In this document: one piece after another, positions 13,831-59,346 of the stretch
Numbering within the stretch: position 1 is the first letter of the stretch
Layout of the letters: every line of letters starts with the position of its first letter
NCBI GenBank assembly: GCA_964035575.1
Contig: OZ037839.1
Location: 1,922,001-1,986,000, forward strand
From: Rhynchopus sp. YZ270_cl-10
Taxonomy: Eukaryota
DNA length: 64,000 nt
Direction: 5' to 3'
Made by a program: the position numbers and the translations under genes
Notes under the pieces: generated by a model
Database searches by the model: none
What the model was told of the DNA's origin: nothing
What the model saw: the letters and a program-made list of their open reading frames with translations, nothing else

Positions 13831-14054
13831 TACATTATTCCGATTGCGGTACTTAAAACGCGTTTTGAAAAGAGTGGTCATTCTCGTGGGGAAAAAAAAA
13901 ATGTGGTAATTGAGGATGCATCATTGATGTATGACAACCTCTGTACTCTACACGCTGATCTCTTATCTGTTGTTGAGTCGACAATCATTCATGCGAAAAG
14001 TGGATGAAAGACGCGATCCAACCATATAAAAAAAGAGGGGGAAAAAAAAAAACA

Positions 14055-14112
14055 GTGGAGATTGCACAACTGTGGCAACACAACCGAGGCAACTACACTT
14101 CAACAATTTATC
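14055..14112 (+). mobile_element. Hairpin micro-retroposon family 2 (GTGGAGATTGC...GCAACTACACT-CAACAATTTATC-An)
   Basis: 12-bp TSD A10CA; other copies at 11969-12030, 18337-18408, 26249-26308, 41500-41556, diverged 11386-11436. Confidence 0.78.
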
Positions 14113-14755
14113 AAAAAAAAAACAAGTAATTGCTATCGGAAAAAAAACGGCGTGTGCTGTGGAACTCCACCCTGTAGAAGTAACCTACAACACACCCAGC
14201 ACTCTGCTCTTCTGCAGGTATGATAACGCTCTTCGTACGCTGCCAGACCCACTGGGACGCCTGCATCTGAAACGTTCAAGAAGGGGGGCTGTCCTCTTCA
14301 TCCAGCACCATCTGATCGATAGCGTTGTTGGACGTAGTCTCGGCAGGCTCGGCGTGTTCCAGATCGTTTTTGTCCACAGGGTCCCACGCAGTGTCGTCGT
14401 CGTTGGAGCAGTGCGGAAGAAGCACAGAATGCACAGACGACAACACGTCGAGCACACCAGGCACATCAGCACCTCCAGCAAATCGCTAGGATGCTACGGT
14501 GGTTTCGAAAACCACGCGGGGTTTTCCACAGCACACCCCGTTTTTTCCTTAGCAATTAGTTGTTCTTGTTGTTATTGTAATTTTCAACCACCTTCCTTCA
14601 ACCCTTGTAGGATCAGTTCTAATTTTTTTTCGCGAAAACTTGAAATGACACATTTCAAGAGAACAAATTAAAAAGGGTCCTTATTTGCATTTTTGGGCTC
14701 TGCCCGTGCAGTGGTGGGGTCAATCTCGAAAATTGGACAATTTTTTGACCACTTA

Positions 14756-24246: not shown

Positions 24247-24668
24247 CTGGGGGGGGGGGGGGGGGGCTAATACAAGAGGTACCTCTTCTATTAGGCGTAA
24301 GAATTTACGCCTAAAAAAATTTTTTTTAGGTGGAAGTCTAATACAAGAGGTACCTCTTGTATTAGCTTTTTTTTTCTGGATTTTTGCTAAATTTTTTTCT
24401 GGATTTTTACTCTCGCCAACCAGTAACACGGGAAAATTTTCAACTTTTTGATCGTACCTGGCCGCAATTGAAAGATTTTGAGCAAACCTTTCATTTGACA
24501 CCATCGATTTATTTTTTTGAAAAAAAGTGATCAAGTCAAATAAAGGAAAGAATAAAGTACCTCTTGTATTAGCCGGTAAAAAATCGTGAAAATCCCGATT
24601 TCAAAGTACCTCTTGTATTAGGCATACCTCTTGTATTAGCAGTACCTCTTGTATTAGCCCCCCCCCAG
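24247..24668. mobile_element. TA-flanked MITE (family G2)
   Basis: TA-CTG-Gn-CTAATACAAGAGGTAC ends; inverted near-identical copy at 24979-25392. Confidence 0.9.
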
Positions 24669-24697
24669 TAACGACCCTTGGTCATGCTGCGAAAGTA

Positions 24698-24976
24698 AAG
24701 GGGGGGGAGGGATAATTGTAGTGGGGGATAACTGTAGAATGGCGGATAAAATAAAAAATATCGCCAGTTTTTTCTTCTCAAAAAATGGGGGATAGTTGTA
24801 GTGGGGGATAAAAAAAAAATATCTCTCTTTTTTCCCACCTGAATATCCCCATCCCCAAGGAAAATCCACACCAAAAACGCGGTGTGGGAAGTGGGGGATA
24901 ACTGTAGTGGGGGATAAAATAAAATAAAATGGGGGAGAAAAAACGGGGGATAATTGTTTTATCCCCCACCCCCCTT
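24698..24976. mobile_element. TA-flanked MITE (family H)
   Basis: TA-AAGGGGGG...GGGATA / TATCCC...CCCCCTT-TA; GTAGTGGGGGATAA repeats. Confidence 0.7.
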
Positions 24977-24978
24977 TA

Positions 24979-25392
24979 CTGGGGGGGGGCTAATACAAGA
25001 GGTACTGCTAATACAAGAGGTATGCCTAATACAAGAGGTACTTTGAAATCGGGATTTTCACGATTTTTTACCGGCTAATACAAGAGGTACTTTATTCTTT
25101 CCTTTATTTGACTTGATCACTTTTTTTCAAAAAAATAAATCGATGGTGTCAAATGAAAGGTTTGCTCAAAATCTTTCAATTGCGGCCAGGTACGATCAAA
25201 AAGTTGAAAATTTTCCCGTGTTACTGGTTGGCGAGAGTAAAAATCCAGAAAAAAATTTAGCAAAAATCCAGAAAAAAAAAGCTAATACAAGCGGTACCTC
25301 TTGTATTAGACTTCCACCTAAAAAAAAAATTTTTAGGCGTAAATTCTTACGCCTAATAGAAGAGGTACCTCTTGTATTAGCCCCCCCCCCAG
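24979..25392. mobile_element. TA-flanked MITE (family G2), second copy, inverted
   Basis: Reverse complement of 24247-24668; shares the TA at 24977-24978 with element H. Confidence 0.9.
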
Positions 25393-27094: not shown

Positions 27095-28282
27095 GGGGAT
27101 ACGACTCCAGCCATTTTGGCTGGGACCAAACGCACGGAAAATTCATTTGGCATTATCTGGCCATCTCCAAGGCAACTGCGGGTGAAAAACACCCTCAGAG
27201 TGGGTCACAGGGGGCCTGTGGGTCGAAAAACGACCCAGAAGCCACCCCAGAATACAAAAAAATGGAAAAAAATAGTGAAAAAACGGCTTTTTTCACGTTT
27301 TGGCCACTTTGGGCAAAATAGCGATTTTTCGAGAAAAAAATCAAAAACCGGGATATTTTTTGACATCACAAAGCCTCCTTTGGCACAAATATACCCCAAA
27401 AGTGGCCTGTGAGTCCATTCCAACCTGTTTTGGACATATTTGACACTTTTGGAAGTGTTTTTTTGGTGTTTTTAGGTCAAAAAAATGCCCAAGACGTCCC
27501 CAAGACATCCCCAAGACACTTTGCACACCCCCTGTTACGGTCATATTTTTTTCGTTTTTTTGCCTGAAACCCCCAAAATACCCCTCCCGGACCCCACATA
27601 GTCCCGAATATCCATCACACACCCACTCAGAGTGAGTAGAAGCACCCCAAAAAAAATATTTTTTAAAGCCCTTCAACTTCAACATGGATGCTGCCGAAAC
27701 TGAAGCACAATTTTAGGGCTTTAAAAAATATTTTTTTTGGGGTGCTTCTACTCACTCTGAGTGGGTGTGTGATGGATATTCGGGACTATGTGGGGTCCGG
27801 GAGGGGTATTTTGGGGGTTTCAGGCAAAAAAACGAAAAAAATATGACCGTAACAGGGGGTGTGCAAAGTGTCTTGGGGATGTCTTGGGGACGTCTTGGGC
27901 ATTTTTTTGACCTAAAAACACCAAAAAAACACTTCCAAAAGTGTCAAATATGTCCAAAACAGGTTGGAATGGACTCACAGGCCACTTTTGGGGTATATTT
28001 GTGCCAAAGGAGGCTTTGTGATGTCAAAAAATATCCCGGTTTTTGATTTTTTTCTCGAAAAATCGCTATTTTGCCCAAAGTGGCCAAAACGTGAAAAAAG
28101 CCGTTTTTTCACTATTTTTTTCCATTTTTTTGTATTCTGGGGTGGCTTCTGGGTCGTTTTTCGACCCACAGGCCCCCTGTGACCCACTCTGAGGGTGTTT
28201 TTCACCCGCAGTTGCCTTGGAGATGACCAGATAATGCCAAATGAATTTTCCGTGCGCAAAAAATGGCTGGAGTCGTACCCCC
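27095..28282. mobile_element. Palindromic fold-back element (family B)
   Basis: ~575-bp near-perfect inverted arms around a 42-bp spacer (27673-27714); GGGG...CCCC ends, TA flanks. Confidence 0.92.
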
Positions 28283-38531: not shown

Positions 38532-41500
38532 CATGAGCGGAAAGTGTCACGTCGTTCACTCACCCAACCGTGCTCCGCAACACCACCACCCAACAGGTGA
38601 TTTTTAGTGTGTGTGGAAGCGTCAACGCATCAAACAACTACAAGAAGGGGGGTGAGGGAACGACAAGTGACACTTTTTGTTTGGGTGTACGGCGAACGCA
38701 CAGAAAGGGAATAAGATTTATCTTACAAAACTCTTTTCTTTTTTTTTTATAGTCCTTCCCTCTCCTCCCTCCCTCCTCAATCCTACACGCCTGCACACAT
38801 ACACCCCCCTTCACAAAAGTAGGAGGGGGTAACAAAATAATGAGTGCGCAATACGTGTGTCGCTTTAGGCATTTCACGATTTTAGCCCATTTCAGAGAAA
38901 AGTGCTTCTGAGGAAAATTTTTTAAAAAATACAACAAACAAAAAACAAAAAACAAAAAAAAAAACGACAAAAAACACACCTCTTTGCTTTTGCTCAAGGT
39001 GGATGTGTGCCTTGTTTTTCAAAAAGGCCCTCCTGAATTTTCAGCACACAGAGAGTGTGTGTATGTGCGTTTTTTTTTACCCTCAGAGCTGAGAACATTG
39101 CGATGTTTTGTGTGTTGAAAAAGCAGTTTTTTTTTGGGTACTTTTCGAGGGAAAATTGCCCAAGTGTTTTTTTTTTGTGCTACGTGGTTGCTGTGTGTTA
39201 TTTGTGTTATTCAACAATCATTTTCATGATGTCTTTTGGGGATACTTCACTCATGAGACGCGTGAAGTATCTTTTGCTTATCGTCACCAAAACATAAAAA
39301 GCGTTTTTGTATAGTGGAGCTCATCCTCGGGTGTCTACACTAATACAACCAAATTTTCAAAAAAAAAAATTTAAAAAATGCAATGATAAAAACCCCCCCT
39401 CGAGTGCACGCAAAATGGCGTTTTTCTTGGTGTGTTCTATACGCCCTCCACCATTCTCAATTGATTGCTATTGCTCATGGCAAAACAAAAACAAAAAAAC
39501 AAAAAAACAAAAAAAAAAAATGCCTTTTTCAGCAAAAAATAACATAAAAAACCAGAAGCAAACCATCCTCCCTCTTTTTTACTATCTTTTTTAACTCCCC
39601 CTTTCTCAAATGCTTTTCTGTTCTCCTGAACGTAAGGTATATGAAACATTAATGTTCTTCACTCCTTCACTCCAAACCCAACTCCCAAAAAAAAAAGGGA
39701 AAGACCGTAACCAGGTTCACCAGGTTTTTTCTGCCATGAAATGTGATTTCCAAAGTCGGGGAGTCCACCTGGTGCGGTCATTTTTTTTTGTACCAAAGGT
39801 ACACATGTCACGAGAGGGATTTTTTTGTATTTCAAGTCAAATTTTTTTTTTGTATTGTGCGGACACACAAAAAGCCTTGTTCTCCTCTACCCACACAGAG
39901 GCTGAGTCAAACAGCCTTTTTACTGAAATAAGGAGAGCATACCGGTGTTCAGATTATTTGAAAGAATTTTTTTTTTTTTTTAGCATTTTGCTGCATTTTG
40001 CTTTGTAGCTAGGTAAAGGAGAAGGGGGAGGGAAGGGGCTGTAAGCACCTCCCCCATCTCCAGAACGACCCCTAAAAAAAAAAATCGTTTTTATTTTTTC
40101 CCCGCAAAATATTTTTTTTTGATTGAAGTTAAATCATCCAAAAAGCCATACAACGATACCGATAATCATTTCCCCCCCCATTTTTTTTCTTCTTCTTCTT
40201 CCTTTTTTTTGTTTTTTTGTTCTTTTTTTTAGGTCAGACCAAGGGGGTTTGCCTTGCCACACTCACGGAGAGGATGAAGTGTGCCGTCTGTATTTCCTCA
40301 CGTTGGCCAGAGGGGTATGCGGGACTATTCTGTACTGTCCTCAGGGCGCTAAACGTCCCTGCCCCCTACTAAATGCAAAGTTAAACCCTGTTTAGGGTAT
40401 TTTTAATACCGGTCTGTGCTTCCCCAGGCTGTGAAAGGTGTTTTTTGCACTCAGCATGAAACAGTGACCAACAGAGCCAGACTTTTCTCTGCTGTGTCAA
40501 ACATAAAAGTGTTGATTGAATGAATACTAACAAAATACACACTCTCCATAACAGTGCAGAACACAACTCTATCAGTCTCCATAAAGTGATCACCAAACGA
40601 CCACCAAACGGTCTTGATGCTGAGTAATAAAGGCATCAATCCCGACTTCGCAAGACCCCAGCGTAGTCCACACAGAACAACACAAGCCGCCAAAGGCTTA
40701 GTTAATAACAAAAAAAAGCTATAGTGGAGCACACTCTAGGGTGGCTACACTAATACAACCAAGTTTTCAAAAAAAAAAAAATGCAACCCCCATTTCAAAC
40801 TACCCCCCCTTGAAGGTCCCTTGAAGGTCCCCCCTTCTGTACCCCTTTGTCACGCCTATTGTCAGGTACACCATTCTCTCGAACCCGCCCATAACTCAAC
40901 AGAGCACGACTCCTGTTGCGTCGCAAAGAGAGGGAAGGGAAGGTAACCCTTAGCTGCACTACTTTTTCTTTCCCAGCTAAAAGGTTACAATAGTAGAGAA
41001 TAATTGAGTCACGCCGTGTCTTTTCTTTTTTTTCTGTAGAAAGACCAACCGTTTTTTAAAATGTCACAAATCACAAAAAAAGCTAGAACAAAAAAAAAAC
41101 GTCTCCAAGCCCTTCAGGGAGGCAGACATCAACGAACCCATGATTAGGTTACAGTTTTGTGTAGACCGGTTATGTTGTGCGGGCCTGATGTGGCCTGAAC
41201 TATGACTACTCTCATGTGTTTAGGATTATTCACCCACATCCCCCCGCGGGACCCCCCCTGGCTGGGGCGGTAAATATGTATAATACGCGATACGTATGAT
41301 ACGTGTGGGGGTAGTCACGTATTTGCCAACCCCCCGGGTGGGTTGTTTCGTAAAAAAAGTCGAGACAAAAAAAAAATATCAAAAGTTATCGACACAATAA
41401 GATCCCCCCCCTTTTTAGGTGACTGCAATGTCATGAATAACGTACCTCTCGATTGGGGGGTTTAACCATACAAAATAAAATAAAATAAAACTGACAGACT

Positions 41501-42056: not shown

Positions 42057-42481
42057 TCCCCGTTTTTTTTTTCTCCCCCACTCCGAGCTGCTCTTCCCTC
42101 GCTAGCTTTTTTCCCAGAATTTTTTACATTCTTTCAATGAACCACATTGTTTATTTTGACGATGTGTCCGTACACATTTTTTCAAAAAAAAACGAAATGG
42201 ATGTAGGTTGGGGGTCCACCCACGGTGCACCGGGTCATTGTACCAAAGGTACACTGTTTTATAAGAGGTCGTATTTCAAGTCAAATTTCTTCGAGAGGCA
42301 TCCACATCCTTCTTGTTCCAAGAACGGGGGCGGATGTACGTTACATCCTCTACTTTACCGTTCTCCTTGAAGTGAAGGCGAACGAATTTATTTCGTGAAA
42401 AATTCAAAATGGGAAAAAAAGAATTCAGAAAAACAAAAAACTTGGCTCGAAGTTGTATTACCGACTGCTTCTTGTATATAT

Positions 42482-43529
42482 GGCAGCGTCCGCGAAAGAC
42501 CCCCCCCTAAAGCTAACATCCATGCTTATTGGTATTTCACTAATTAAAATTTTGGTATTTTATAAGATTTTTTTTTAAAATGAACTCAGAGTTAAGTTTC
42601 TGAGTTCATTAAAAAAAAAATCGGTGAAAAATTCCGAGTAGGTATTAATTTAGATAGGAAAAGCTATGTCAACAGCTATGTGTCCCCTTATTTTACCTGT
42701 AAATACTAAGGATATACAAGGAAATCCTCACAAACACCCATATAACCACCCATAGAACAACACAACAGGGGGAAATGTAATCAGCAGCCAAAGCATTCGC
42801 TCAGGAGCTGAAAACCCGGCCTTTCCGAGGCCTAAAAAACTTCGCCGAGCTGCAGGTGTATGCAGGGGTTCACTGGCAGGGGGGCAAAGGGTGGGGCGCG
42901 AGGAGCTGGATGCGCGAGGTGTGTAGCTCGAAGCATATGTCCCTCCATATGCAGAAGACAACCACCAGGAGAAAAGGGGCGTCCGCCGTTTACTACTCCT
43001 GTAGTTGCATCAGCGACACCCTCAGGAGGACAGTGACAGCGAGACGGAGGAGGAAGAGGAGGAACAGGCGGACAATTGTCTGTAACTCTTGGAGAGACTC
43101 ATCACTGAGGTCAATAGGGTCACTCAAAAAAGGGGGTTTTCTGCGAGAAAGTCGACGTCGCCGCAGACGACCCGGAGCGTGAAGCTCTTTCGCGCTCTAT
43201 TTAGAGTGTTCGGAGGGGACGACAAGCCTCCACCCCCCTTTCCTACCCCCTTTTTGATAATGGGTTTAGAGACAGATATTAGTGAATTCCTTCCTATATC
43301 CTTAGTATTTACAGGTAAAATAAGGGGACACATAGCTGTTGACATAGCTTTTCCTATCTAAATTAATACCTACTCGGAATTTTTCACCGATTTTTTTTTT
43401 AATGAACTCAGAAACTTAACTCTGAGTTCATTTAAAAAAAAAATCTTATAAAATACCAAAATTTTAATGAGTGAAATACCAATAAGCATGGATGTTAGCT
43501 TTAGGGGGGGGTCTTTCGCGGACGCTCCC
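42482..43529. mobile_element. Long-TIR internally deleted DNA transposon (family T)
   Basis: ~245-bp TIRs (42482-42727 vs 43285-43529), AT (or TA) duplicated at the ends; GC-richer coding-like interior. Confidence 0.9.
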
Positions 43530-45154
43530 ATATGCCAACATAAAGTGTTTTCCTTTTTTTTAATGTGTCGACAGTAAGGCACATTCATCTCTGCTAGTTT
43601 ACAGTTTTTATGAAGATGTGTATGCAACGTGAAGCATATTTACCTCTTTCAACTTCTCTCCCCTGCCCCCCTTTTTATCAGTCTCTGCGCTGCATTTTGC
43701 AGCAAGAGACTGGTTTCTTAGCATCCATTTTTTAGATTTTATGATTTTATGAGTTTTATCTTTTGTGCTTTCATCCATGACTGGCATCGTATGGTGAGTG
43801 GAGGGAGGTGCCTGCATCAATAACTATTATTTTATGTGTGTTGTGCACAAAGGGCACAGTCATTCTCTACAAGCGTTTTTCACTGCCGCCTGCATCCAAG
43901 AAGGTGTCTCACGCGGCGCCCAAACCCCCCTCCCCCTCTGAAAGTGGACTCAACTCAGCACAGTGCGGCTTCGGTCCCTCATTACAGAAACTTTTGTTCT
44001 TTCCCCCACCACCCCTTCTCCCGTTTTTACGTTTTTTTTTACGTTTTTTTTTTACGTTTTATTTTCCATAAAATGCATCCCCCTTTCTCGTTCTCCTCGA
44101 CGTTCTCCTGGCTCTGCACTTTTTTTTAACCCTTGTTTCATTTCTGCGTTGATTTCCAACAGTGGTGGAAGCGTACAAACTAACAAACTCTCACCTGAAT
44201 AGGCTATTTTGTTTCCCCGTTGTTTCCCCGTTGCTGTGTGGGTGACGATAGCTATTGACGCCGTATTTTTATAACTCTTTGTTTCATTTATGCTTTTAGT
44301 GATGTGTTATATATAGGAGGCCATTTTAGGTGGTGTTATGTGTTGTTGTGATTAAAAAGCAGTTGTGGGGTAGTTTCCCAAGGAGCATTTCCACTACGAC
44401 TGCTTGCGTTGTGTGTTTGACATCAGGTGTGGTTCACCCTTATTCCCCGAGGGGTCGGTCTGGGTGAAATCTGCATGGGGAAATGACAGAGATACACAGA
44501 ACGATGTTCAATGATGCAAGCCCCGCTGTACGTATGCGTGCGTACAGCAAGCAGTCCTCATCTTTTTTTGTTGCGCAAAATTGCGTGTGTGTTTTGAAAA
44601 AGCAAGAGTGGTCCGAAGCATTTTACCACAATTTGCGTGTGTATTGCGCAGCGAAAGGCATATTTCATCGTTTCACGTCTTCCTTAAGGGGTGGGAATGG
44701 CTGCACAGTGCGGTCTGCACACAACGACGGGTTTATACTGTGTAATACATAAGGGGTCGGGTTACCCTGCACGCTTGACAGCATTCAGGGCTCCGGCCTC
44801 TTGCTTTTTCTGTTCTCCTGAAAGTATATGAAATTTATGTTTTCCTTTTTTTCATTTTTCTGAAAGAAGATGTGTGTGTGTGTTTGATAACTAGTAGGGG
44901 TAATTCTTGCTCAGAATATGGCCCCAATGTGTGTGTGTGTGTGTGTGTACAGTTGAGGCAGACATTCTCCAATTTCGTTCTCTTTTTCTTTCATTCTCTT
45001 CTTTCTCTGGAGAGTGTTTTTCGCACACACACGCGCAGCTTTTTTAAAATTTTTTTTTAGATCCTCGTTTTTTCTATTACCCTCCCGATTGTTAGCACTT
45101 TTCAAGATTATTTTATATTCAACTTTACTCTTTTTTTTCGCAATATTTCGTTTC

Positions 45155-49735: not shown

Positions 49736-49981
49736 TAGGGGGGGGCAAAAAGCGGTGTTTAGTGAAATTTTTTGAGTTACGATACCACAGAGGCTCGAAA
49801 CACAAAATCTCTGGCGAATATGGATTTTTTGGGGCTCAGGAGGGGGGTGTGCCTGGTCACAGGCCTCCAAATGCGCCCAGAAACATGAAAAATATGAAAA
49901 ATTGACTGGTTTTTTGGGGTTTTCGCACTTTTCGCACTTTTGGGAAAACAGCGTTTTTTCACTCTTTTTTTGAAAAAAATA

Positions 49982-49995
49982 TCTGTACTTCATTG
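49982..49995 (+). other. Spliced-leader (mini-exon) 3' end relic TCTGTACTTCATTG
   Basis: Matches the conserved euglenozoan SL 3' end TCTGTACT(T/A)(T/C)ATTG (recalled from memory) and lies exactly at the 5' junction of a TSD-flanked insert. Confidence 0.72.
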
Positions 49996-50649
49996 GTCTC
50001 GGCCAGTGGAGTCCCCTACAGGAGGGGAGAGGGCTTTGCCCTCTCCTGTACTACACGTGAATATGTCTTTGTTTTTGCAAAGAAAACATGAAAAGCTGCT
50101 CGCCATGGTGGAGGCCCGTCTGTTGGACGCCGAGACCGAGGAGGAGCTGCACCGTGCACAGGCTTTGGTACGCCTGTTGGAGGAGGCACGGAAGGCCACG
50201 CTGCGCATAGCAGCAGAAGAAGAGGAACCCCCCGTCGTGCAGGAGGAGAAGCAGACGACGGAGGTGACGGCGGCACCACCGCCAGCGAAGGAGACACCCG
50301 GCACCTGCCCAGATGCCACCGCAACGACCCCCCCCACCAGCAGGAGGCTTGGCTCTACTGGTGGGGCAACGACGCCTCACGAGGCGCATACGACGAAGCC
50401 GGCGCCGCCGCCTCCACCCGACGACCGCCTGCACCCACTGACTCGCCCACCCGACGGTGGATGGAAGTGCCCACCCGACCGTGGGTGGCTGTGCTCACCT
50501 GCAAGAACGTGTTCTCTGAAGTGCCCACCCGACCGTGGACGGCTGCGCACCGCAAAGACTATCGCCTGGAGCAATTCGGGCATAACATAGAAGCGTGTAG
50601 TATAGTGGAGTTCATCTTCGGGTGTCTACACTAAAACAACCAAGTTTTC
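49984..50649 (+). mobile_element. Retroposed, SL-bearing insert ending in the family-1 hairpin tail
   Basis: Absent from the sister arm (51737-51762); TSD AAATATC at 49977-49983 and 50650-50656. Confidence 0.85.
50063..50590 (+). CDS. 175-aa hypothetical protein: predicted coiled coil, P/T-rich linker, repeated PPD(R/G)G motifs
   Basis: First ATG after the SL relic; GC-rich; stop 10 bp before the 3' hairpin. Confidence 0.6.
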   Translation: MSLFLQRKHEKLLAMVEARLLDAETEEELHRAQALVRLLEEARKATLRIAAEEEEPPVVQEEKQTTEVTAAPPPAKETPGTCPDATATTPPTSRRLGSTGGATTPHEAHTTKPAPPPPPDDRLHPLTRPPDGGWKCPPDRGWLCSPARTCSLKCPPDRGRLRTAKTIAWSNSGIT

Positions 50650-52075
50650 AAATATCAAAAAACGGACATCAGATAGTGTGCAAATACCCAAAATCACCCC
50701 AAAAGTATCGAATCTTTTCAAATACATCTGTTTTTCACACTTTAGACGCTCTGTTCGGGGCCAAAACCTCATTTTTAGGTCAAAAAATCGTCCCGTTTTC
50801 GTCCCGTTTACCGCGCTCACACCATTCCTCAAACCCGTTGGGCCACTTTCTGGCCACTGCTGGGGGGTCTGACCACCCAGAGCACCCCCATTTACCAACC
50901 TCCTACCACATTTTCACCGAATTTCAGACCCAAAACTCTCTCTGTACCCCCAGAAATGACCCAAAAAAACACAGAAAAAATGACTTTGGCAACAGCAACG
51001 GCTATGATAAGCACCCTTTTTGGGAAAGGTGGGGAAGAGGAAGAGTCCCTGGTGTGAGGTGGGTGCTGAGGAAGTGTCGTGCTTGCATCGCAAGCCCCCT
51101 TGCAGATCCCTGACGGAGATTATGTTCGGGAGGGGCTTTGTGCAGGTGGGGTGCAAGAGGATACAGGTGGGGACAAACATAGTGAGAGTGGCTGCAATGC
51201 AGGCACCACACCTTGCTCGTCTTGTCCCTTGTCCCCACCTGTATCCTCTTGCACCCCACCTGCACAAGGCCCCTCCCGAACATAATCTCCGTCAGGGATC
51301 TGCAAGGGGGCTTGCGATGCAAGCACGACACTTCCTCAGCACCCACCTCACACCAGGGACTCTTCCTCTTCCCCACCTTTCCCAAAAAGGGTGCTTATCA
51401 TAGCCGTTGCTGTTGCCAAAGTCATTTTTTCTGTGTTTTTTTGGGTCATTTCTGGGGGTACAGAGAGAGTTTTGGGTCTGAAATTCGGTGAAAATGTGGT
51501 AGGAGGTTGGTAAATGGGGGTGCTCTGGGTGGTCAGACCCCCCAGCAGTGGCCAGAAAGTGGCCCAACGGGTTTGAGGAATGGTGTGAGCGCGGTAAACG
51601 GGACGAAAACGGGACGATTTTTTGACCTAAAAATGAGGTTTTGGCCCCGAACAGAGCGTCTAAAGTGTGAAAAACAGATGTATTTGAAAAGATTCGATAC
51701 TTTTGGGGTGATTTTGGGTATTTGCACACTATCTGATGTCCGTTTTTTGATATTTTTTTCAAAAAAAGAGTGAAAAAACGCTGTTTTCCCAAAAGTGCGA
51801 AAAGTGCGAAAACCCCAAAAAACCAGTCAATTTTTCATATTTTTCATGTTTCTGGGCGCATTTGGAGGCCTGTGACCAGGCACACCCCCCTCCTGAGCCC
51901 CAAAAAATCCATATTCGCCAGAGATTTTGTGTTTCGAGCCTCTGTGGTATCGTAACTCAAAAAATTTCACTAAAACCGCCTTTTTGCCACCCCCTACCCC
52001 CCCCCCCCCCCCCCCATAATTGAAACCGAGGGAATTAACGACAACTTAATTACCGGCTGGACTGCATGCTGTGTT

Positions 52076-53514: not shown

Positions 53515-54630
53515 ATGGATGTGACGTTTGTGCTGGAAGAGTCAGGCGTGACTGCGACAGTGGAGGTGCCGTGCGACGCGGACGTTGCAGCGGCAAAGGA
53601 GGTTGCGTGCACGGCGCTTGCTGTCTCGCCTGCATCTGTCGAGATGCGCATCGGCACGCAGGTACTGGAGGGGACGTGCCGTCTGCAGGACACTGCATTT
53701 GATGCAGGGGTGCAGGTTGTGCTTGCCCGCTTTGCCGACATCAAGTGTCCTGCTGAGTTCAGTGAAAATGTCTCACAATTTTCTCTGTCTCCTTGTGGAA
53801 CGCTGTGCCTCATCTTCATGCGGGTTAACGATGCACTTGTTACCTGCGTCGGCTTCGACACAGGAACCTTTGACACTGCTTTCAAGTTCGACTTCGAATG
53901 TGATAACCTCGGCCAGCCTGCTGTCTCACCGTGCAAGACACGCTGCTACGTGCCGTATGGGGATGACTTACGCGAGGTTGCGCTTCCAGGCGGGGAGGTG
54001 CTCCGCAAAGTCGACTCCCCGTCGAGGTCAGTGTTCGCGTCTGGCAGTGTTGTTGTCTCATCGTGTGACGACTTTGTCTCTGTCTATGGCACAGACCTGA
54101 CGTTCCTCCGCTACCTCTCGCGCCAAGGGAACAAAGGTGTGTCAGTGTCAGACTGTGGTGGGTGGGCGATGACCCGACACGATGATATGAAGGCACGTCT
54201 GTGGGATGTGAGCACAGGTGTTGCTGTGGCATGTGTGCCTGTGAAGGGTGCTGGGTGGCAGTGTGCTACGGCGATTTCACGGTCTGCCTCTATCTTTGCT
54301 GTGGGTCACCCTGAGGAAGTGCACCTCTACGACTGGCGTGGTGCGTCTCTTGGCAGCATTAGAAAGGAGGATCACTACGTCGTTTTCGTGCGCTTCACTC
54401 CCTGTGGGAAGTACGTGGTAGTTGATTTTGTAAATCTTAGCTTGGAAGAAGGTTCACTACACCAGTATGATGTGTCGACTATGTCCTGTGTGCGTGTGAT
54501 ACCAAATTGCATCAGTCCAGTTGCGATATCGCCGACTTCACGTGTGGTTATGTTTTTGTCCGAAGAAAATTCTCAATCTGCATCCGAGAAAAAAAATGCC
54601 CTTCTGACGAGACACCTGTACCCCTACTGA
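53515..54630 (+). CDS. Ubiquitin-like domain + divergent WD40 repeat protein
   Basis: 371-aa ORF; Ubl-like N-terminus (MDVTFVL..TVEV..ADVAAAK..L.V....EMRIG...L....LQDTAF.AG..V); blades KARLWDV, VRFTPCGKYV. Confidence 0.87.
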   Translation: MDVTFVLEESGVTATVEVPCDADVAAAKEVACTALAVSPASVEMRIGTQVLEGTCRLQDTAFDAGVQVVLARFADIKCPAEFSENVSQFSLSPCGTLCLIFMRVNDALVTCVGFDTGTFDTAFKFDFECDNLGQPAVSPCKTRCYVPYGDDLREVALPGGEVLRKVDSPSRSVFASGSVVVSSCDDFVSVYGTDLTFLRYLSRQGNKGVSVSDCGGWAMTRHDDMKARLWDVSTGVAVACVPVKGAGWQCATAISRSASIFAVGHPEEVHLYDWRGASLGSIRKEDHYVVFVRFTPCGKYVVVDFVNLSLEEGSLHQYDVSTMSCVRVIPNCISPVAISPTSRVVMFLSEENSQSASEKKNALLTRHLYPY

Positions 54631-58466: not shown

Positions 58467-59346
58467 TAAGGCGACCAAAAAAGTCCTCTGGAATTTTTTG
58501 TTGTGTCGACAATCGCCGAGTAATCCCGGAGAATTAGGGTCTGGCCGAAGCCTTTTGTACTACGGTAGCAACCTTTCAGAGCAACTATTAGCAAGAAAAG
58601 AATCAGGTTTTGGAGGTTACAGTCCTCGTTTAAAAAGTTAAAGGTAGAGGTGGGGAAACTGTAGCTATAGAAATCGTTGTTGCAGTAGTGTAGACACCCG
58701 AGGGTGCACCACTATGCTTTCTTTGGTTGTATCGATCACCTACAGAGGTAGGATGTACACAATGTCGCCCGAAGGCTTTGTACTTAATCGGTATTTTTTT
58801 TTGTTACTACTACGTCGTGTACCAGGAGTCGCGTTTGGGTACGTCTTTCTTCTGTTTTCTGTACGGGTCTCGGTTCGCGGTGTAGTGCAGTGCGGCGCGA
58901 AAAGCTGCATACCATAGGTTGCTCATTTCACTACCAGGACTCGAGTCGCGAATAGCAGAATCACAAGAATCGACACAGCAGAAAGTTCTGAAACGCAAAA
59001 ACGACGACCGCCGGGCTCTGTGACCCAAGAGCTCCCAACTTGCCCTAAAAATAAGTTCAGACTTGCCCTAAAAAAAGTGTTTGCCCTAAAAATAAGTTCA
59101 GAATGGAGGTACCCTAACTGTTCGGTCCAATTCGGTGTATTTCGGTCCATTTCGTTTTTTTTTTTTTTTCGCAAAGGGAAATTTCCCCTTGTACCAGAAA
59201 AACCGAAAAAACCGAAATAAAACGAAATGAAAACCGAAAAAAACCGAAATGTTAGGGTACCTTTTTTGGTCCGATCCTCCTTCTAAGGTGCTCGCTCTCC
59301 ATACCTAGACCCTCTAATTTTTTTTTTTTGCCCCTATATAGGGCTA

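Follow-up and report, generated by a model that had tools for sequence, protein, structure and literature searches.

This locus raises the question of how an insert of 659 bp, lying in one arm of a host repeat of Rhynchopus sp. YZ270_cl-10, came to begin with a piece of spliced leader (SL) sequence. The original prediction was that a trans-spliced RNA had been reverse transcribed from a hairpin at its 3′ end and had integrated recently, either as a non-autonomous retroposon or through a gene-retrocopying system. We analyzed the insert within the whole surrounding stretch of 64,000 nucleotides (the window), where an ORF survey found intronless LRR, WD40 and ankyrin genes, all on the plus strand, amid many repeats. 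The gene at 53515-54630 (+) belongs to a very large family of WD40 type (414 matches, with most of the best 120 of the 414 on one 2.7-Mb contig). The insert site comprises the following features:

49736..51996, no strand assigned: host foldback repeat with long inverted arms and TA at both ends, from arm comparison
49977..49983, plus strand: left copy of the target duplication, AAATATC, whose last 2 nt also fit the SL
49982..49997, plus strand: SL 3′ piece (exon nt 27-40 and GT), 16/16 to the SL RNA gene in metagenome locus L014
50650..50656, plus strand: right copy of the target duplication, AAATATC
51749..51755, minus strand: empty site in the right arm, with the 7-mer AAATATC once only

The arms of this foldback repeat, which would be a TA-flanked MITE-like element, align as an outer pair (49736-49983/51749-51996; 248 nt, 98% identity) and an inner pair (50650-51176/51229-51755; 527 nt, 100% identity), and when the insert and the duplicated 7-mer are set aside they differ at three positions at the outer end and one at the inner end. 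The DNA extra to the left arm (49984-50649) is 666 nt long, corresponding to the 659-bp insert plus one copy of the 7-bp duplication. Both the arm alignment and the joints of the empty site, present in three of the four runs (X3, X4 and X5), bear out the prediction that these 666 bp occur in the left arm only and that the right arm is empty. Flanking by AAATATC was likewise borne out, with the refinement that the TC ahead of TGTAC can be assigned to either the duplication or the element, giving a duplication of 5-7 bp. No poly(A) was found at the 3′ end of the insert beyond three A's belonging to the duplication, and neither terminal inverted repeats nor long terminal repeats were present at its ends. 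By contig depth, the foldback arms are multi-copy in all four runs. Other long foldback repeats, with arms 97-100% identical, were observed at 24257-25390, 27131-28256, 42478-43533 and 1456-2607, and the long foldback repeats of the window are likely to be MITE-like DNA elements.

The insert carries an ORF of the predicted length:

50063..50590, plus strand: 175-codon ORF, ATG at 50063 to stop at 50590, of no known family and frameshifted in sister copies
50445-50464 and 50523-50542: short internal direct repeats within the ORF

This ORF has no Pfam domain and no Atlas match. A protein search gave two clusters, both of the insert's own family, with no relatives outside it and none of greater length; beyond the family, the ORF search returned only an unrelated repeat protein (E 2e-4). 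The family comprises five proteins on eight contig records, to which more than one assembly may contribute, and three of the five (P0002, P0004 and P0005) carry frameshifts when compared with the ORF in the window. Given the frameshifted sisters and the absence of any outside relative of the ORF, the ORF does not act like a host gene, and the suggestion of a gene-retrocopying system is left unsupported. In run X1, the contig over 49983-50422 has a depth of 860, the next piece is lower by about 89 and the unique tail contigs range from 64 to 98; taking about 89 as the one-copy step, this run would contain about 10 copies of the insert. Body depths in X3 and X5 are similar. The copies are dispersed, with different flanks and a common 3′ end, the second flank being known from protein P0004 only. 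P0004 lies on another contig; at the protein level its flank is a different one, rich in Lys, after which it begins S-V-L-H-W as in the window. A longer SL in P0004 would place a Val ahead of the Ser, and its start falls at the same place within the codon; from these two copies, the 5′ end of the insert looks fixed.

The start of the insert (49982-49997) matches nt 27-42 of the L014 SL gene, the exon end plus GT, at 16/16 positions, the reference SL being that of a metagenome euglenozoan and not the host's own. An exact match of at least 16 to this gene was reached in 0/200 composition-matched null windows (at least 12 in 58/200), and the insert boundary is set by the empty site, independently of the SL match. 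These results support an SL origin of the 5′ piece. The prediction had described a 14-nt SL match followed by GT; the match proved real, and its extent is 16 nt with the GT included. After the GT, the insert diverges from the SL intron. The possibility that the insert is a permuted SL-gene repeat unit was rejected, the post-GT sequence being unlike the SL introns seen.

The SL genes used for comparison came from a metagenome scan with a gapped motif taken from a tail copy at 58.7 kb (described below), which gave 86 matches at 83 loci. The motif came from the 58.7-kb stretch, and the exact continuation into the 12-mer of the insert did not. Among the 86 matches, 48 go on as TGTACTTTATTG, and two, L014 and L045, go on as TGTACTTCATTG and then GTATGG. 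An RNA-gene scan of 20 of the 83 loci placed U1, U2, U4 and U5 genes next to the SL of L014 and 5S rRNA next to that of L045; we take SLs of the L014 type to be diplonemid. SL genes of D. papillatum likewise lie beside such RNA genes, according to PMC10161547. Neither the body nor the tail of the insert matched any of the 83 loci. In all four runs the summed depth of 49978-50009 clearly exceeds that on either side, and this short stretch is present in further sequences, which may be SL genes or sister elements. SL RNA genes within dense clusters of tRNA, U snRNA, 5S and SRP RNA genes were also observed at L002, L016, L024, L027, L044, L063 and L073, and at a contig end (L026:974-1015) an SL 3′ piece immediately precedes a full SL, forming a tandem SL with an ORF downstream.

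Whole euglenozoan SLs were also observed in DNA directly 5′ of ORFs, in IMG/VR contigs (L084-L092) and in a subset of the metagenome loci L005-L082. An AAAA(A/T)TGA-like or TTTGATTTT motif stands at most 45 nt upstream in 32/45 matches that are not SL genes compared with 0/33 SL-gene matches, mostly 19-20 nt ahead of the SL. The nine SL matches of the viral collection, eight on one 238-kb viral contig and one on a giant-virus MAG contig, all have the motif, which we take to resemble the Mimiviridae early promoter. These observations suggest that giant viruses infecting diplonemid-like hosts bypass trans-splicing by carrying the host SL in their own DNA, in cis; a search of literature listings yielded no description of a virus-encoded host SL.

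As predicted, the insert ends in a hairpin tail of a type that we term family 1, and seven other strong family-1 copies lie in the window. The tail and its relatives are:

50601..50649, plus strand: family-1 tail of the insert, hairpin AGTGGAG...CTACAC and then an end resembling SL nt 1-13, at very high depth in 4/4 runs
40720..40768, plus strand: example of a stand-alone family-1 mini-element of ~50 nt between A runs
23823, 32266, 35070, 39310 and 47146: further stand-alone family-1 mini-elements
26334, 60409 and 63742: weak family-1 copies
14052..14113, plus strand: example of a family-2 mini-element with the same end motifs
11967, 18334, 26248 and 41496, plus strand: further family-2 mini-elements
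58655..58716, minus strand: family-1 hairpin and then the SL 5′ part, stopping where the SL piece of the insert begins

The strong copies number eight for family 1 and five for family 2, about one per 5 kb of the window. Both families have AGTGGAG...CTACAC and, after it, an A/C-rich stretch finishing with TTTC or TATC; family 2 was observed to have a longer inner stem with the same terminal motifs. The tail is ~50 nt long and its summed depth is about three orders above that of the body, a sum inflated by overlapping contigs, and A-rich loose ends flank 50601-50652 on both sides. Strong tail copies lie on the gene strand in 12/13 cases, though T runs (309) exceed A runs (238) on that strand. 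Clear target duplications were found for 4 of the 12 mini-elements tested, one of them doubtful, and the A runs behind the mini-elements may derive from the target. The tails were also considered as fixed 3′ ends of host genes, and this was rejected, with one clear and one degenerate case among seven genes. The duplication and empty site, the dispersed copies and the lack of an RT of its own support the prediction of a non-autonomous retroposon; no RT or autonomous partner was present among the ORFs of the window, and no relative of the insert's ORF is longer. From the duplication, the A-rich target, the shared 3′ end and the absence of terminal repeats, we infer target-primed reverse transcription by an RT acting in trans, and the predicted recent insertion by this route from the hairpin tail is thereby supported.

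SL sequence is also found behind the tail hairpins. In the 58.7-kb copy, 58679-58655 matches L014 nt 4-28 at 24/25 positions, a score reached by 0/40 null windows, such that this copy and the insert start hold two SL pieces that adjoin at nt 27/28. A profile of the hairpin only, built without the 58.7-kb copy, recovers that copy at E 1.4e-4. By eye, 58655-58716 (-) may be surrounded by a 9-bp duplication with one mismatch. Each of the 12 tail ends tested is similar to SL nt 1-14 (empirical p 0.0006-0.04 each), although as related copies they are not independent. The tail end of the insert itself is degenerate relative to the SL (13/16 columns), while the match at its 5′ end is perfect. A further stretch similar to the insert start, at 58856 (+), was rejected, since 30/30 null windows score as high.

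Folding of the insert's RNA predicts two hairpins near the 5′ end:

49982..50022, plus strand: predicted 5′ hairpin formed by the SL piece and 50002-50022, a segment holding the family motif AGTGGAG (z -3.2)
50025..50047, plus strand: second predicted hairpin, 10 bp

Modelled pair probabilities for the first are 0.74-1.0 at 49987-49997 and 0.25-0.46 at 49982-49986, and the predicted hairpin includes five G-U pairs. Pairing of the SL piece with the next 25-30 nt gives -18.1 kcal/mol, matched by 0.08% of 6000 random 30-mers of the window and by 0/3000 shuffles. The 5′ boundary of the insert coincides with the base of this predicted hairpin, just as the 5′ boundary of the mini-elements is the base of their own hairpin. 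The left arm of the tail (AGTGGAG) runs approximately antisense to the 3′ end of the SL, and in 14/16 hairpins this arm is predicted to pair with SL nt 29-40 (p under 0.04). The predicted tail hairpin of the insert is modest (z -1.7). Rfam and ARAGORN searches of the window gave nothing at gathering score, with chance-level matches only near the insert and near 58.7 kb, and searches for HDV-like and hammerhead cores at the insert gave no match with a descriptor run without a positive control.

The occurrence of SL sequence at both ends points to probable descent from an element with SL RNA genes as its target, similar to the CRE/SLACS elements. Our leading explanation, which we regard as evenly poised, is that the insert is a non-autonomous retroposon that gained its SL pieces in cis from such an ancestor, and we infer an RNA intermediate, a CRE/SLACS partner and a master copy in an SL gene. 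Since trans-splicing adds the SL only at RNA 5′ ends, contact in cis with an SL gene is required to place SL 5′ sequence downstream of the tail hairpin. The 58.7-kb tail copy, running into 24/25 nt of the SL 5′ part, speaks for descent in cis, as does the 16/16 match, which spans the exon-intron junction of the SL gene. A master copy in or beside an SL gene would be transcribed with the SL exon end and GT on its 5′ side and the SL start on its 3′ side, and an RT supplied in trans would recognise the 3′ hairpin tail. Priming at a nick in A-rich DNA would then duplicate 5-7 bp of the target without adding poly(A). Copying that ends where the 5′ hairpin of SL piece and element has its base would produce the common 5′ boundary near SL nt 27, while copies stopping at the base of the tail hairpin would account for the abundant ~50-nt mini-elements. 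According to PMC12278014, PMC5814959 and PMC3636483, CRE-clade elements insert in SL genes with duplications, and D. papillatum is listed with 745 SLACS-type RT genes in one orthogroup compared with 110 SL genes (PMC10161547, supplement file 5). Against descent in cis, the described CRE elements have poly(A) and a site at SL nt 11/12, whereas the insert lacks poly(A) and sits in non-SL DNA; the GT is expected by chance about once in 16 (2/45 of the non-gene SL matches have it); and renewal by trans-splicing would likewise account for a perfect 5′ SL piece together with a degenerate SL-like 3′ end. The departure from the SL intron after the GT, the basis of the fixed 5′ boundary in two copies, the small number of clear mini-element duplications and the negative outcome for an RT partner among the window's ORFs and the ORF's relatives count against it as well.

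Under the original prediction, an SL-less source locus would be transcribed, and its RNA, after trans-splicing at AG|GT, would be copied back into DNA from the tail at its 3′ end; copying would halt at the foot of the 5′ hairpin and so keep 14 nt of SL. The 5′ hairpin would explain the fixed stop. All euglenozoan mRNAs carry the SL according to PMC10161547, and dinoflagellate retrogenes commonly bear SL relics according to PMC6050394. Several observations, however, weigh against trans-splicing as the source of the SL. The GT continues the match to the SL gene, P0004 starts at the same codon and not with a different SL length (one example, protein only), and the SL 5′ sequence at the tail ends and in the copy at 58716-58655 is left unexplained. 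For the AG-preceded source that the prediction proposed to seek, a fork would be expected at the acceptor (49995), and none was seen in the X1 contig over 49983-50422, which weighs little because contigs drop rare branches. Moreover, the acceptor is lost in retrocopies, so that all copies would need one or two unseen sources, and a family motif right behind the SL is unlikely in a random host transcript. Because the GT may be due to chance, the missing fork is weak evidence and the perfect 5′ piece with a decayed 3′ end fits renewal by splicing, we keep the trans-spliced retrocopy as a serious possibility, though one that more probably fails than holds.

A single template switch by the RT, from element RNA to SL RNA (exon end and GT) and aided by complementarity, could alternatively have produced a chimeric retropseudogene that then multiplied in the manner of a SINE, with no targeting of SL genes. 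The roughly antisense relation of AGTGGAG to the SL 3′ end would assist such a switch, and thousands of scattered rRNA gene pieces are reported for D. papillatum (PMC10161547). We consider this improbable, since it leaves the SL 5′ sequence at the tail ends to be explained by some further event and does not explain how copies regain the exact 5′ end. That the SL likeness is due to chance, or that the element moves as DNA, is very improbable: the SL matches are short and were compared with SL genes from other organisms, but the null windows (0/200 and 0/40), the absence of terminal inverted repeats and the 3′-anchored family with its variable 5′ extent all stand against it.

In its mode of operation the insert is comparable to a short non-autonomous LINE derivative. 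Sequence derived from the target at the ends of the element RNA is known from R2/NeSL, which have SIDE derivatives, and the insert would be similar in this respect, although target and lineage differ. R2 is co-transcribed with its target, as described in PMC3636483. The insert resembles the CRE clade of trypanosomatids (SLACS, CZAR, CRE1/2) in its non-LTR logic, target duplication and link to the SL RNA gene, and the SL-like end of its tail finishes around SL nt 13, not far from the CZAR and SLACS site at SL nt 11/12 (PMC5814959). Unlike that clade, it has no RT/RLE ORF, no poly(A) and a site in non-SL DNA, and the copy itself carries SL sequence at both ends. It lies in a foldback repeat and not at a fixed site in an SL RNA gene, its SL link being through the carried sequence only. 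Lacking an RT and poly(A), and off target, it was not filed as a CRE member. RIME, NARTc and SIDER, the short derivatives of ingi/L1Tc, are like the insert short and non-autonomous, with a defined 5′ end, a duplication and a high copy number, and their co-orientation with genes is shared by the insert family here. The 5′ end of these derivatives bears a Pr77 signature with an HDV-like ribozyme; at the 5′ end of the insert, Rfam gave no match, and the descriptor noted above gave no HDV-like match. The insert starts with SL sequence, and L1Tc transcripts are described as SL-less. Dinoflagellate SL-relic retrogenes share with it an SL remnant in DNA that marks an RNA intermediate (PMC6050394), and an SL 3′ end does lie at the 5′ boundary of the insert, with SL genes of other organisms as reference. 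Those retrogenes are host genes, whereas the ORF of the insert has no conserved host-gene parent or other host relative, is frameshifted in sisters and is followed by a dedicated 3′ tail.

A broader proposal, which we think unlikely, is that these elements form a retroposon superfamily built from the SL. Unit-length RNA cut at nt 27/28 at both ends would yield a permuted SL, and through a hairpin arm antisense to the SL 3′ end the RNA would hold on to SL sequence. The ~50-nt form would have reached a number on the order of ten thousand gene-co-oriented copies and, by binding either SL RNA or mRNA capped with the SL, could affect trans-splicing or mRNA fate.

We found no description of such an SL-ended retroposon family in the open full-text literature, a search on which older CRE/SLACS papers and subscription papers might bear, and PMC12857005, PMC9566855 and PMC9326685 added nothing decisive on one. 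In existing descriptions, retrotransposons that target the SL stay within SL arrays, and the short retroposons of Euglenozoa derive from ingi. If the reading is true, genome-wide ~50-nt units combining an SL 3′ end at the start, an SL-start at the end and an antisense-SL hairpin would represent a new way in which SINE-like repeats arise out of the trans-splicing apparatus. The family would offer a direct handle on how the ends of CRE-clade RNAs form, and on whether such repeats influence trans-splicing.
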